A stretch of DNA of 64,000 nt from an uncultured Actinomycetes bacterium (GCA_963733255.1 CAVTCH010000009.1:29694-93693); one strand, 5' to 3'; numbered from the stretch's first letter, positions 53,197-59,757 are shown. The notes: generated from the letters alone by a model not told the origin. Made by a program: numbers and translations.

Positions 53197-55935
<2,739 letters not shown>

Positions 55936-56016
55936 CTAGGCCGCACGGGCCGCCAACTCAACTGTCGAGCGGGCTCTGCTACGATGTCGGCCCGACCATC
56001 TCTGAGAGGAGGGCTC

Positions 56017-56520
56017 GTGCACGACCCCGTCATGGCGCGCCGCAGCATTCGCGCCTACACTGCCGAACCGGTCTCGGACGAGCACGTCGAGCGGCTGCTG
56101 CGGGCCGCGATGGCGGCGCCCTCGGCCGGCAACCAGCAGCCCTGGCGGTTCGTGGTCGTCACCGATGCCGCGACCCGCGCCCTCATCCCGACCGTGCATC
56201 CTTACGCCGCCATGGTCGAGCAGGCCCCGCTCGTGATCGTCGTCTGTGGCGTCGAAGCCGGCGCGCGCTGGCCGCAGTTCTGGGTCCAGGACTGTGCGGC
56301 GGCCACCGAGAACATCCTGATCGAAGCCGTGCAGCTCGGCCTCGGCGCCGTGTGGCTCGGCGTCTACCCGCTCGAGGAGCGGGTGACGGGGCTGCGCGGC
56401 CTGCTGGGTGTGCCCGACGACGTCACGCCGTTCGCCGTCGTGCCCGTCGGTCATCCGGTCGACCGCAAGCAGCCCGCCGACCGCTACCAGCCGGAGCACG
56501 TCCACCGCGAACGCTGGTAG
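56017..56520 (+). CDS. nitroreductase-family protein
   Basis: RRSIRAY...PSAGNQQPW motifs; GTG after GAGGAGGG. Confidence 0.75.
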   Translation: MHDPVMARRSIRAYTAEPVSDEHVERLLRAAMAAPSAGNQQPWRFVVVTDAATRALIPTVHPYAAMVEQAPLVIVVCGVEAGARWPQFWVQDCAAATENILIEAVQLGLGAVWLGVYPLEERVTGLRGLLGVPDDVTPFAVVPVGHPVDRKQPADRYQPEHVHRERW

Positions 56521-56694
56521 GGCGGCGCGCGGGACGGCGGCTTGGGCGCGCGCCGGCCGCGGGGAGCCGCGACGGATCGCACACCGCGAACGGTGGCAGG
56601 GCGAACGACGTCAGGCTCCGTTGGGGCGTGGTAAGGTCGCCTCTGCGCGGCGGGTCCGGCGACCTGCCGCCTGCCCGACGACGATCGACAAGGA

Positions 56695-57009
56695 GTGTAC
56701 GTGCCCGATTCCTGGGTCAAGGTGGCCGACGAGGGCGCGCTGGCCGACGGCCGGGCGCTGCCCGTCTACCCGCGGGGGCTCGGACTGCTGCTGGTCAAGG
56801 CCGGCGGCGACGTCTACGCGATCGCCAACCGCTGCGCGCACATGGGCTGCCCCCTCGAAGCCGGCGCCTGCGACGAGTTCATCGTCACCTGTCCTTGCCA
56901 CGACTGGCGTTTCGACGTGCGCAGCGGCGCCTTCGTGACGGCGCCCGAGATCAGCATCCCCACCTATCCCGTCCGTGTGACCTCCGGCGAGGTCTTCGTT
57001 CAGCTGTAG
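56695..57009 (+). CDS. Rieske [2Fe-2S] ferredoxin-like protein
   Basis: CAHMGCPL...CPCHDWRF; probable true start is the second GTG at 56701 (7 nt after AAGGAG). Confidence 0.75.
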   Translation: MYVPDSWVKVADEGALADGRALPVYPRGLGLLLVKAGGDVYAIANRCAHMGCPLEAGACDEFIVTCPCHDWRFDVRSGAFVTAPEISIPTYPVRVTSGEVFVQL

Positions 57010-57021
57010 CCAGGAGGCCGC

Positions 57022-57282
57022 ATGAGCGATCCGATATTCGTCTACGCGCTGAGCACCTGCCCCTGGTGTCGCAAGGCCAAGCAGTACTTCGAAGAGAAGG
57101 GCGTCGAGTTCGAGGCCGTCGACGTCGACCTGCTGCCCGACGACGAAAGCGACCGGCTGGCCGGCGAGGCCTTCGAGCTTTCGGGCTCGCGGGCCTACCC
57201 CGTGGTCAGGATCGGCGACGAGGTCGTCGTCGGCTATCTGCCGGAGCGCTTCGACGAGCTTCTGCAGGCCGGCGCCCAATGA
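57022..57282 (+). CDS. glutaredoxin-like thioredoxin-fold protein (CPWC active site)
   Basis: YALSTCPWCRKAKQYF... 86 aa. Confidence 0.7.
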   Translation: MSDPIFVYALSTCPWCRKAKQYFEEKGVEFEAVDVDLLPDDESDRLAGEAFELSGSRAYPVVRIGDEVVVGYLPERFDELLQAGAQ

Positions 57283-57617
57283 GCCACGAGGCCCGCAAAG
57301 CGGCGCTGCGCGAGTTCTACACCCCGCTCGTCACGGCGATGGGCTACAAGTTCACGCCCGACGACGATCTCGCCGACTTCCTGCTCGAACAGGAGGCCGT
57401 CCTCGAAGAGAGCAAAGGCGCGCCGTACTGCCCCTGCCAGGTCCGCACCCGCGAGCGCGAGCACGACATGAAGATCGTCTGTCCCTGCATCCCCTATCAC
57501 CGGGCCCACTTCGACGCCATGCGGCGCTGCTGGTGCGGTCTGTTCGTCCATCTCGACGTGACCGACCCCGGCATACTGCCGCAGATCGCGGCGAGCGAGC
57601 TCGGCATAGAGGAGTGA
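57279..57617 (+). CDS. ferredoxin-thioredoxin reductase catalytic-subunit-like protein (FtrC family)
   Basis: CPC...CPC...CWC cysteine pattern matches the FTR catalytic chain CPC/CPC/CHC; ATGA overlap with the upstream gene. Confidence 0.65.
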   Translation: MSHEARKAALREFYTPLVTAMGYKFTPDDDLADFLLEQEAVLEESKGAPYCPCQVRTREREHDMKIVCPCIPYHRAHFDAMRRCWCGLFVHLDVTDPGILPQIAASELGIEE

Positions 57618-57623
57618 GGCGCG

Positions 57624-58010
57624 GTGTGGACTGAGGTCGGCACGACCGGCGACATCGCCGCCGGTGGCATGAAGTTCGTCAAGCTCGGCGGCGCGCAGGG
57701 CGTGCTGTGCAACTGCGACGGCGAGTTCTACGCGGTCGGCCGGCGCTGCGGCCACATGAACGCTCCGCTCGACCAGGGCTCGCTCAGCGGCCACGTTCTC
57801 ACCTGCCCGCTGCACTTTGGCCAGTTCGACGTGCGCGACGGCGCCGTGCTCGCCTACCCGCTCGACCGCCACTTCGGCGACGAGCCGCTGCCGGCCGCCG
57901 CCCAGCGCGTGCTCGGCGTCGAGGCGCGTCTGCAGCGCAAGATCCGGGTCGACGGCCTGCGCACCTGGCCGGTCAGGGTGACCGGGGAATCGATCGAAGT
58001 CGATATCTGA
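57624..58010 (+). CDS. Rieske [2Fe-2S] ferredoxin-like protein
   Basis: CGHMNAPL...CPLHFGQF. Confidence 0.7.
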   Translation: MWTEVGTTGDIAAGGMKFVKLGGAQGVLCNCDGEFYAVGRRCGHMNAPLDQGSLSGHVLTCPLHFGQFDVRDGAVLAYPLDRHFGDEPLPAAAQRVLGVEARLQRKIRVDGLRTWPVRVTGESIEVDI

Positions 58011-58091
58011 ACACCGCGCGACGGCGCCGACAGCGCGACGTCCGGCGCACACCGAGCGACTACGAAGCAACCAATGAACAAGGAGGGATCG

Positions 58092-58685
58092 ATGCCTTTC
58101 GAACTGCCGCCCCTGCCGTGGGCCGAAGACGCGCTCGAGCCGGTCACGTCGGCGCGCACCATCAGCTTTCACTACGGCAAGCACCACCGGGCCTATGTCG
58201 ACAACCTGAACAAGCTCGTCGCGGGTACCGACCTCGACGGTCGCAGCCTCGAAGAAGTGATCGCGGCGGTGGCCGGCGACTCGGCCAAGGCGGGCGTCTT
58301 CAACAACGCCGCCCAGGTCTGGAACCACAGCTTCTTCTGGCAGTCGATGAAGCCGGGCGGCGGCGGCGCGCCGAGCGGCGCGCTGGCCGCCAGGATCGAC
58401 GCCACCTTCGGCGGGCTACCGGCCTTCGTCGAGCAGTTCAAGGCGGCCGCGGTCGGTCGCTTCGGCAGCGGCTGGGCCTGGCTTGTCGACGACGGTGGCA
58501 CGCTGAAGATCGTCACCACGGCCAACGCCGAGATGCCGGCCCCGCCGGTCAAGCCGCTGCTGACCTGCGACGTCTGGGAGCACGCCTACTATCTCGACTT
58601 CCAGAACCGTCGCCCCGACTTCGTCCAGGCCTTCTGGGACAGCCTGGTGAACTGGGACTTCGCGGCGCGCAACTTCGGCGCCTGA
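58092..58685 (+). CDS. Fe/Mn superoxide dismutase
   Basis: ISFHYGKHH, DVWEHAYYLD motifs; AAGGAGGG SD. Confidence 0.9.
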   Translation: MPFELPPLPWAEDALEPVTSARTISFHYGKHHRAYVDNLNKLVAGTDLDGRSLEEVIAAVAGDSAKAGVFNNAAQVWNHSFFWQSMKPGGGGAPSGALAARIDATFGGLPAFVEQFKAAAVGRFGSGWAWLVDDGGTLKIVTTANAEMPAPPVKPLLTCDVWEHAYYLDFQNRRPDFVQAFWDSLVNWDFAARNFGA

Positions 58686-58694
58686 GAGCCTGAC

Positions 58695-58735
58695 GGGCGG
58701 GGGCCGGCGGGCTGAAAGCCCGCCGGCCCCCGCCC
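58695..58735 (+). terminator. 19-bp perfect GC hairpin with GAAA loop downstream of SOD (no clear U-tract)
   Basis: gggcgggggccggcgggct gaaa agcccgccggcccccgccc. Confidence 0.45.
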
Positions 58736-58800
58736 GCTCTACCAACGAGAATCGCGACGGCAGGTTCGGGTAAGCTGGCCAGTACGTCTGAGCGGAGGGG

Positions 58801-59757
58801 TTGGCCATCGATCGACGGACGTCCGTGGCGGTCGAAAGAGACGAGAGTGTCGGGCGCCGGGGTCCGAGCCGTCTGGCTGCCCTGGTCGACCTGTCGCGCA
58901 CCCGGCAGGCCCTGCTGTCCGTCGCTCAGCCGGGTCTCGGAGCCGTACTCGCGCTCGGCGGACTGCCTTCGCTTCGAGTCTCGCTGGTAGGCCTGGTGGC
59001 CGCCGCGGCGGGCTTTCTCGCGGTGTTCTCGCTGAACGACGTCCTCGACAGGCGGGTCGATGCCGCCGCCTTGCGGGCGGGCAAGGGCGAGTTCGCCGGC
59101 TTCGACATCGACACGGCCTTCGAGCGCCATCCCCTCGCGCGCGGCGACCTCAGCCTGCGCTTCTCGCTGGCCTGGGTCCTGTCGCTCGCCGCGCTGTCCG
59201 CCGTGCTCGCCTTCACCCTGGCGCCGATCTGCCTGCTGCTGTTCGCGGCCGCCGTCGGCCTCGAGGTCGTCTACTGCGCCTTGCGGTCCGTGACGCCCTG
59301 GAAGACCGTCGTCTCGGGGGTCATGGTCGGCCTCGGCGGCGTGGCGGGCTGGGCGGCGGTGGCGCCGCTCTCGTGGCGTGCCCTGAGCGTGTTCGGGTTC
59401 CTCGCCCTGTGGGAGATCGGCGGCCGCAACATCGCCAACGACCTGGCCGACATCGACGCCGATCGCAGCGTGGGCGTGAAGACGGTGGCCACGGTGTACG
59501 GTCCCGCCGTCGCCGCTCGTGCCGCCTGCATCGTCGGTTTCGCGACCCTCGCCTCGACTGTGACCCTGCCCATGAGCGGCGGTCTGCTGAGCGACCTGGC
59601 GCTGGTGGCCGGCGTGTTCGTCGTCGCCTGGCCGGGAGCCAAGCTCTGGTACCGTCCGACGAGCGCCGAAGCCGCCTCGTACTTCAATGTCGCGAGCCTC
59701 TACCCGGCGGTGGTCCTGGTCGTCGCCCTGCTGCCGGCCGTGTTTGGAGCGCTCTAG
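58801..59757 (+). CDS. UbiA-family aromatic prenyltransferase (4-HB/MqnP/MenA-like)
   Basis: NDVLDRRVD first Asp-rich motif, DLADIDAD second motif, 8-9 TM; TTG start after GGAGGGG. Confidence 0.8.
   Translation: MAIDRRTSVAVERDESVGRRGPSRLAALVDLSRTRQALLSVAQPGLGAVLALGGLPSLRVSLVGLVAAAAGFLAVFSLNDVLDRRVDAAALRAGKGEFAGFDIDTAFERHPLARGDLSLRFSLAWVLSLAALSAVLAFTLAPICLLLFAAAVGLEVVYCALRSVTPWKTVVSGVMVGLGGVAGWAAVAPLSWRALSVFGFLALWEIGGRNIANDLADIDADRSVGVKTVATVYGPAVAARAACIVGFATLASTVTLPMSGGLLSDLALVAGVFVVAWPGAKLWYRPTSAEAASYFNVASLYPAVVLVVALLPAVFGAL

Follow-up and report, generated by a model that had tools for sequence, protein, structure and literature searches.

We have analysed a 64,000-nucleotide stretch of DNA from an uncultured Actinomycetes bacterium (GCA_963733255.1, CAVTCH010000009.1:29694-93693; hereafter the window), which has a G+C content of ~70%, and have focused on a group of redox genes at positions 56017-58685. 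At its centre is a cassette of four genes: two encode Rieske [2Fe-2S] proteins (Rieske-1 and Rieske-2) and enclose genes for a glutaredoxin (Grx)-like protein and for a relative of the catalytic chain of ferredoxin:thioredoxin reductase (FTR; the FTRc-like protein). Families were assigned by Pfam profile search of the window proteins and subfamilies against the NCBIfam cut-offs. Six genes, all on the + strand, fill the interval:

56017-56520, + strand: small nitroreductase-family FMN protein, 167 aa (PF00881, E 4e-29)
56701-57009 (alternative start 56695), + strand: Rieske-1, small soluble Rieske [2Fe-2S] protein, 102-104 aa (PF00355, E 1e-17)
57022-57282, + strand: Grx-like redoxin, 86 aa, active site T-C-P-W-C (PF00462, E 4.8e-14)
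57279-57617, + strand: FTRc-like protein of the FDR family, 112 aa, CPC...CPC...CWC (PF02943, E 1.6e-23)
57624-58010, + strand: Rieske-2, ferredoxin-type Rieske [2Fe-2S] protein, 128 aa, CGH...CPLH (PF00355, E 1.5e-16)
58092-58685 (open reading frame from 58074), + strand: Fe/Mn superoxide dismutase (SOD), with Sod_Fe_N and Sod_Fe_C domains

The profile search bore out the families named in a preliminary description of this DNA. Both Rieske proteins matched PF00355 (64.2 and 60.5 bits, cut-off 20.3), the Grx-like protein matched PF00462 (52.7 bits, cut-off 22.9) and the FTRc-like protein, on whose match to the FTR model that description had staked its proposal of a thiol-reducing relay, scored 83.2 bits against PF02943 (FeThRed_B, cut-off 22). 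The same description had spoken of five tightly packed genes. This is accurate for the four cassette genes, where Rieske-1 and Grx are 12 nt apart, Grx and FTRc overlap by 4 nt (ATGA) and FTRc and Rieske-2 are 6 nt apart, but not for the nitroreductase, which ends ~175-180 nt before Rieske-1, nor for the SOD gene, which begins ~64-81 nt after Rieske-2. The 12-nt gap between Rieske-1 and Grx holds an AGGAGG ribosome-binding site. Comparison with orthologues and the ribosome-binding sites favoured 56701 and 58092 as the likely starts of Rieske-1 and SOD, respectively. The 64-kb window contains only two Rieske motifs, those of Rieske-1 and Rieske-2.

A scan with the FTRc-like alignment, using one genome per prokaryotic species, returned 349 loci with relatives, and the best 80 were examined. 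Gene order was obtained by tblastn with the window proteins, and the residue counts given below are over 76-81 orthologues. The order Rieske-1, Grx, FTRc was found in essentially 80/80 loci, with Rieske-2 directly downstream in about 75 of the 80. Co-occurrence of FTRc-like and small Rieske genes, which the preliminary description had put forward as a check, was complete: Grx and FTRc were accompanied by at least one Rieske gene in all 80 genome loci. Most cassette junctions across the loci were overlaps of 4, 1 or 8 nt, as expected of a translationally coupled operon.

The loci cover more than 10 bacterial and archaeal phyla, including four archaeal lineages, and their hosts are mainly anaerobic or microaerophilic. 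The bacterial hosts belong to Actinomycetota, Chloroflexota, Elusimicrobiota, Acidobacteriota, Myxococcota/deltaproteobacteria, Spirochaetota, Ignavibacteria, Fibrobacteres, Dethiobacter and Betaproteobacteria (Rhodocyclaceae, Burkholderiales and Candidatus Ferrigenium straubiae), and the archaeal ones to Methanomassiliicoccaceae, Bathyarchaeota, Nanoarchaeia, Methanolobus and Methanomethylovorans. The FTRc-like proteins of Actinomycetota and methanogens share 62-67% identity, which is unusually high for such a taxonomic spread. In the closest loci, FTRc was 80-88% identical to that of the window; these loci came from metagenome-assembled genomes that bear the label Actinomycetota, Actinomycetes or Thermoleophilia, and peatland samples (palsa, bog, fen) had yielded several of the genomes. 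All-against-all clustering of the open reading frames (ORFs) of the 80 loci yielded no flanking gene family common to different phyla; the neighbours that it grouped were clade-specific (SnoaL-like, pirin, LysE, SDR, luciferase-like, LigB, FMN reductase, DUF2252 and a Cys-rich protein).

The reverse search took the 80 best metagenome matches to Rieske-1. Most of these are closely related to the window, and the search hence carries little weight for distant Rieske-1-type genes. Grx and FTRc lay downstream of Rieske-1 wherever the flank sufficed, with the exception of L146, in which a Rieske-1-type gene (84-404) stands alone, with neither Grx nor FTRc downstream. Both base composition and gene content shift abruptly 3' of that gene, and the contig may be chimeric. 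The cassette arrangement is far beyond chance, and its synteny across bacteria and archaea strongly backs the view that the Rieske, Grx-like and FTRc-like proteins are functionally coupled.

We have then searched 1.84 billion representative proteins for fusions, followed by Pfam scans and sequence inspection. Given its high conservation, the FTRc-like subfamily falls into very few 50%-identity clusters of this representative library. Grx-FTRc fusions were found in P0121, which has the CWC motif, and in P0159, and a Grx/FDR fusion has been solved (PDB 7pwe). P0130 and P0134 joined an FTRc domain with CWC to a Rieske domain of the Rieske-2 type. A separate Grx gene lay directly upstream of the FTRc-Rieske fusion genes (L169, L170), and at L170 this pair occurred without a Rieske-1 gene. 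Together, the Grx-FTRc and FTRc-Rieske fusions supported a direct partnership between these proteins. Methanolobus and Methanomethylovorans possess another variant (L049 3753-5953, L051 3828-5926, L066 3746-5926), in which two to three tandem Rieske-1-type paralogues, all with an extra Cys pair, stand ahead of Grx, FTRc and a nitroreductase and Rieske-2 is missing. From this archaeal variant and from L170, what stays constant is the Grx-FTRc pair together with one or more Rieske proteins, whichever their type.

Two kinds of fusion candidate were discarded. The 181-184 aa "Grx-FTRc" ORFs of Elusimicrobia are upstream open-frame extensions of the FTRc frame over a Grx gene that lies in another frame, and P0143 (235 aa), a candidate FTRc-Rieske fusion, reads as frameshifted and garbled. 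Other FTRc-like fusions in the library were thioredoxin-FTRc (P0164, 209 aa), CoA-binding-domain-FTRc (P0193, 251 aa) and Grx-FTRc-DUF3422 (P0214, 637 aa). These suggest that the small FTRc-like iron-sulfur reductase has been linked up with a range of partners.

The FTRc-like protein carries the motifs C51-P-C53, C68-P-C70 and C84-W-C86. C51, C53, C68, C84 and C86 were identical in 81/81 sequences and C70 in 80/81, and W85, H74, R75 and H77 were invariant in the 81. The six cysteines align with those of 4tpu, 7pwe and 2pvg. The solved relatives found by sequence were 4tpu (FDR, E 7e-7), 7pwe and then classical FTRc (E ~1e-3). The AlphaFold2 model (pLDDT 76.9, pTM 0.71; cluster-binding loops of low confidence) pointed to the same proteins, as its only PDB matches with a probability of at least 0.94 were 7pwe (the best), 4tpu and the FTRc chains 7c2b, 2pu9 and 1dj7, with TM scores of 0.51-0.62. 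By analogy with these relatives, the core is predicted to hold a [4Fe-4S] cluster together with a redox-active disulfide. The third motif has no catalytic His (CHC), its position being occupied by Trp (CWC) in 81/81 sequences. The protein, of 112 aa, ends shortly after this motif and has no rubredoxin domain, and the annotated genes around it, both in the window and in the neighbourhoods of the related loci, included none for FTRv.

In the Grx-like protein the T12-C-P-W-C active site was kept in 80-81 of 81 sequences (C13 and C16 in 81/81, W15 in 80/81). The protein scored below the cut-offs of the named subfamilies, YruB (TIGR02196) being the nearest (65.8 vs. 88.55 bits), ahead of NrdH (TIGR02194, 38 vs. 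85.75) and Grx3 (37.5 vs. 90). It also matches several NCBIfam "UXX-star" families of Grx-like selenoproteins, and the only NCBIfam match of the FTRc-like protein is the "FtrB family double-selenoprotein" (NF041072). Both partners thus have selenocysteine counterparts in other organisms.

The two small Rieske proteins had been treated alike in the preliminary description. Both do belong to PF00355, yet to judge by their sequences they are of different types, Rieske-1 being respiratory-like and Rieske-2 TodB-like. The cluster loops of Rieske-1 are C47-A-H49-M-G-C52 and C66-P-C68-H69, in which the ligands C47, H49, C66 and H69 as well as the extra pair C52 and C68 were invariant in 79-80 of 80 orthologues. 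This CxHxGC...CPCH pattern is that of the respiratory (bc1/b6f/arsenite-oxidase) type. A search with the loop segment ranked the Rieske proteins of the Thermus bc complex (1nyk/3fou) and of arsenite oxidase (1g8j) first, and they align column for column with Rieske-1, while its closest solved relatives overall are dioxygenase ferredoxins. In respiratory Rieske loops the second Cys pair forms the disulfide of high-potential proteins, as stated in PMC2946596. Rieske-1 has no N-terminal anchor or signal extension within its 102-104 aa and is thus presumably cytoplasmic. It scored 21-25 bits against the NCBIfam models QcrA, PetC and AioB, under their cut-offs of 95-275, and no cytochrome b or molybdoenzyme partner gene lies near it.

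Rieske-2 lacks both disulfide cysteines and has an insertion of ~35 residues near its C-terminus. Its ligands C42, H44 and H64 were identical in 76/76 sequences and C61 in 75/76, and its best solved relative is TodB (3dqy, E 3e-15). The best NCBIfam matches of the Rieske proteins were AndAb, NirD and HcaC, all below cut-off: Rieske-1 scored 51.9 vs. 150 bits for AndAb, 50.4 vs. 150 for HcaC and 51.5 vs. 74.65 for NirD (TIGR02378), and Rieske-2 scored lower.

We have compared the cassette with known systems. The preliminary description had placed FTR catalytic subunits mostly in photosynthetic organisms; this does not hold, as FDR-family proteins occur widely among anaerobic bacteria and archaea, where these enzymes reduce atypical thioredoxins and use ferredoxin, and the characterised family members all act as reductases (PMC6262447). 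The FDR of Methanosarcina acetivorans (4tpu) is the closest solved relative by sequence and has a matching fold; like the FTRc-like protein it carries CPC...CPC...CxC and has no FTRv. It is reported to reduce Grx-like proteins as well as atypical thioredoxins. It differs by its fused C-terminal rubredoxin domain (173 aa in all) and by its CYC motif, whereas the window protein has 112 aa, CWC and separate Rieske proteins instead. The Desulfotalea psychrophila Grx/FDR fusion (7pwe) contains the same Grx and FDR-type pair, which in the window is encoded by adjacent genes overlapping by 4 nt. In 7pwe they form one polypeptide with CYC as the third motif, and the entry gives no indication of a Rieske partner. 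As an analogue, it shows Grx and FDR-type domains acting in concert.

FDR enzymes have reportedly been found to reduce methanoredoxin and NrdH, in work credited to Prakash 2018 and Wei 2015. In the Methanosarcina barkeri system attributed to Wei 2015, an FDR-family enzyme is described as reducing an adjacent NrdH/Grx-like redoxin that serves class III ribonucleotide reductase. In that account the donor is ferredoxin and the client NrdD, whereas no nrd gene accompanies the cassette in the neighbourhoods examined. Plant and cyanobacterial FTR (1dj7, 2pvg) shares the Pfam family, the fold and the six cysteines of the FTRc-like protein. It is a remote relative (E ~1e-3), with a CHC motif that includes the catalytic His and with motif spacings of 17 and 9, compared with 15 and 14 in the window protein; it forms an FTRc/FTRv heterodimer that takes electrons from a plant-type [2Fe-2S] ferredoxin and passes them to thioredoxin.

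On the Rieske side, the ferredoxins of dioxygenases (TodB 3dqy, NDO ferredoxin 2qpz, BphF 1fqt) are small soluble one-electron carriers like Rieske-1 and Rieske-2. Unlike in those systems, there is no oxygenase or dioxygenase-type ferredoxin reductase near the cassette, the loops of Rieske-1 are respiratory-type and Rieske-2 has its ~35-residue insertion. The ARF protein of Sulfolobus solfataricus, encoded beside DPSL, is a small cytoplasmic Rieske ferredoxin tied to oxidative-stress defence by context and expression (PMC2739297). ARF is described as lacking the disulfide cysteines (PMC2946596), and these accounts mention no partner of the Grx or FTRc-like kind.

Based on these data, we favour, with moderate confidence, a reading of the cassette as a Rieske-linked disulfide-reductase module of the FDR/FTR family with a Grx-like dithiol partner. 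The four genes would encode one self-contained thiol-disulfide redox module. Its FTRc-like core would turn two one-electron transfers into one two-electron disulfide/dithiol exchange, as family chemistry implies. Synteny, fusions and family precedent point to the CPWC Grx-like protein as the dithiol partner, and synteny and the FTRc-Rieske fusions to the Rieske [2Fe-2S] proteins as one-electron partners that would replace the plant-type ferredoxin or the rubredoxin domain of FDR. Electrons would most likely run from a reductant through Rieske, the FTRc-like and the Grx-like protein to disulfides of the cell. A clade-specific flavoprotein may act as the reductant, for example the nitroreductase-family protein, which is a candidate reductase for the cassette, and the module would probably serve thiol repair or redox homeostasis under exposure to oxygen or oxidants.

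Several points weigh against this reading. Rieske-type ferredoxins have potentials of about -150 mV and respiratory-type Rieske clusters positive ones. The Grx, NrdH and thioredoxin couples lie at about -200 to -290 mV and the active-site disulfide of FTR at about -320 mV. Electron transfer from Rieske to disulfide would thus be uphill, unless the potentials are shifted or the Rieske pool is highly reduced. The invariant Trp in place of the catalytic His means that the chemistry of the FTRc-like protein may differ from that of plant FTR. The neighbourhoods of the 80 loci contained no conserved Rieske reductase and no conserved client of the Grx-like protein, and the stress genes beside the cassette, described below, are lineage-specific, so that their presence could be coincidence.

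The potentials would be accommodated if the flow were reversed, with the FTRc-like protein oxidising the Grx-like dithiol, and ultimately the cellular thiol pool, and passing electrons via Rieske to an acceptor of higher potential or to some Rieske-dependent enzyme whose gene lies elsewhere. The transfer would then be downhill, as Rieske potentials are generally more positive than those of thiol/disulfide couples, and the respiratory-type loops that Rieske-1 shares with the Thermus and arsenite-oxidase Rieske proteins would fit this direction. The evidence for coupling (synteny, residues, fusions) fits it equally. A reversed flow is thus a strong competitor, but we consider it unlikely: the characterised members of the family are reductases (PMC6262447), the surroundings of the cassette hold no conserved acceptor or oxygenase gene, and disulfide formation in the cytoplasm would be of no obvious benefit.

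The invariant C52/C68 pair of Rieske-1 raises the possibility that the Rieske proteins are clients. An ordinary ferredoxin-dependent FDR would reduce the Grx-like protein, which in turn would keep reduced, or reset, this Cys pair as a redox switch or damage site. FDR enzymes do use ferredoxin (PMC6262447), and the pair, which corresponds to the disulfide described for high-potential respiratory Rieske proteins (PMC2946596), is retained in a protein that has no export signal and hence presumably resides in the reducing cytoplasm. Rieske-2, however, has no such cysteines and yet is equally conserved and is the type that is fused to FTRc; the L170 fusion locus keeps Grx but has no Rieske-1; and a covalent FTRc-Rieske fusion is suggestive of electron transfer from cluster to cluster rather than of an enzyme-client relation. 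We regard this explanation, too, as improbable.

A more speculative option, to which we assign a low probability, is that the FTRc-like centre couples the two-electron CPWC couple to two distinct Rieske carriers, one respiratory-type with disulfide cysteines and one ferredoxin-type. Either each carrier would serve one of the one-electron steps, or electrons would be split or merged between a higher- and a lower-potential cluster. This would amount to a thiol analogue of quinol-type bifurcation, or to a reverse FTR that feeds thiol electrons to Rieske. If true, it would connect thiol redox chemistry with iron-sulfur electron transfer in a novel way, in anaerobes and microaerophiles from both domains of prokaryotes.

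Finally, the Rieske genes might encode ordinary ferredoxins of the dioxygenase type, or NirD-like subunits, with partners elsewhere, a reservation of the preliminary description to which the AndAb, NirD and HcaC matches and the dioxygenase ferredoxins among the best solved relatives lend some colour. Their place next to Grx and FTRc would then be a coincidence. This idea is very improbable and effectively refuted by synteny and fusions, given the gene order kept in 80 bacterial and archaeal loci with overlapping stop and start codons, the FTRc-Rieske fusions, NCBIfam scores far under the cut-offs (52 vs. 150 and 51.5 vs. 74.65 bits), and the finding of no oxygenase, NirB or further Rieske motif in the window and of none of these conserved in the flanks of the 80 loci.

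Our preferred reading, a Rieske-linked disulfide reductase, bears on a well-known chemistry. The textbook example of disulfide cleavage by an iron-sulfur cluster is provided by FTR-type enzymes, and the known routes of electron entry have so far been a plant-type ferredoxin (FTR) or a rubredoxin domain plus ferredoxin (FDR). With dedicated, co-evolved Rieske proteins, the one-electron partners of this chemistry would gain a further class, which would raise the thermodynamic question of how, or in which direction, a Rieske cluster exchanges electrons with a thiol/disulfide couple. We found no description of a Rieske/FTRc-like cassette in the full-text literature or the reviews of thioredoxin-reductase diversity that were searched, although an earlier mention in the primary bioinformatics papers on FTR/FDR is possible. 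The cassette is apparently an undescribed Rieske version of a known disulfide-reducing system, in which the Grx-FTRc pairing itself has precedent. Extending from peat Actinomycetota to methanogens, it could mark a widespread, unnamed thiol-redox or oxidant-defence module in microbes of wetland, sediment and subsurface. The proteins are few, small (86-128 aa) and soluble, which makes the proposal directly testable by reconstitution.

The surroundings of the cassette contain the following further features:

54495-56048, - strand: FAD-dependent oxidoreductase, divergent (Pfam Pyr_redox_2 / FAD-depend_C)
56602-56637, + strand: promoter/operator-like block upstream of Rieske-1 (alignment of intergenic sequences of the actinobacterial clade)
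58686-58739, + strand: GC-rich, terminator-like hairpin without a T-run, directly after SOD (folding)
58801-59757, + strand: UbiA-family prenyltransferase, 3' of the hairpin

The preliminary description had seen the cassette as embedded in an oxidative-stress neighbourhood. The nitroreductase and SOD genes do flank it and may belong to the system, but the conservation of the nitroreductase, FAD oxidoreductase and SOD genes beside the cassette is confined to the actinobacterial clade. The FAD oxidoreductase is kept next to the cassette only in Actinomycetota/Thermoleophilia loci, and at the related locus L003 both it and the SOD are 92% identical to those of the window. The nitroreductase lies upstream of the cassette in most loci of the clade; its closest structures are entries of uncharacterised "putative NADH oxidase/nitroreductase" proteins (3e10, 3m5k, 3kwk). 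In Methanolobus and Methanomethylovorans a distant paralogue (28% identity) lies directly 3' of FTRc, with a 4-nt overlap in L051 and L066. To judge from these sequences, the association of a nitroreductase with the cassette looks as if it arose independently in Actinomycetota and in methanogens.

The SOD gene follows Rieske-2 in most loci of the actinobacterial clade and in no other phylum. The nearest NCBIfam model of its product is Fe-SOD (245 bits, under the cut-off of 348). Folding gave no significant hairpin between Rieske-2 and SOD (z -0.45), while the hairpin after SOD had a minimum free energy of -55.1 kcal/mol (z -8.96), with 0/200 shuffles as stable. A terminator scan that requires a T-run does not call this hairpin, and the sigma-70 and terminator consensus scans gave nothing useful on the + strand. 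The lack of a hairpin before SOD and the strong one after it argue for a transcription unit of Rieske-1, Grx, FTRc, Rieske-2 and SOD. SOD is thus probably the last gene of the cassette transcript in the actinobacterial clade, where the module would appear on one transcript with an Fe/Mn SOD.

The block at 56602-56637 is the sole conserved one in the intergenic region between nitroreductase and Rieske-1, as aligned from 22 distinct sequences of the actinobacterial clade. Its first part is an inverted repeat (CGAACG-N11-13-CGTT(C)G), after which comes an invariant, extended -10-like CGTGGTAAGGT. The CGTGGTAAGGT motif occurs once in the window, and 13 related loci have the full pattern upstream of Rieske-1, in the same place. 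From this conservation, the block is probably a promoter together with a putative regulator-binding site. Its spacing fits neither an actinobacterial LexA box (TCGAAC-N4-GTTCGA) nor a SigH/SigR-type promoter of extracytoplasmic function (ECF) sigma factors (GGAAC-N16-18-GTT).

Other lineages place different genes beside the cassette. A catalase gene lies immediately upstream in L081-L084 (5886-7391), an unrelated metagenomic lineage, and genes for an ECF sigma factor and a zf-HC2 anti-sigma factor lie upstream in L085-L087 (5145-7354), also an unrelated metagenomic lineage. An NADPH-dependent FMN reductase is found downstream in Ferrigenium (L040) and a pirin upstream in L016, and SnoaL-like genes precede the cassette elsewhere. 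The associations with oxidant-response genes in these lineages are independent of one another. Given such recurrent contexts, which are not homologous, and hosts that are mainly anaerobic or microaerophilic, a role of the cassette in coping with oxidants is plausible. A loose precedent is the small Rieske-type ferredoxin that is among the most H2O2-induced genes of S. solfataricus (PMC2739297).

As a minor observation, a long ORF on the - strand (53197-55704) includes a part, from an internal Met (~53197-54480), whose translation reads like adenylosuccinate synthetase (PurA) and which is situated just upstream of the FAD oxidoreductase. This PurA-like gene and the UbiA-family gene look like housekeeping neighbours and are kept among close relatives only.

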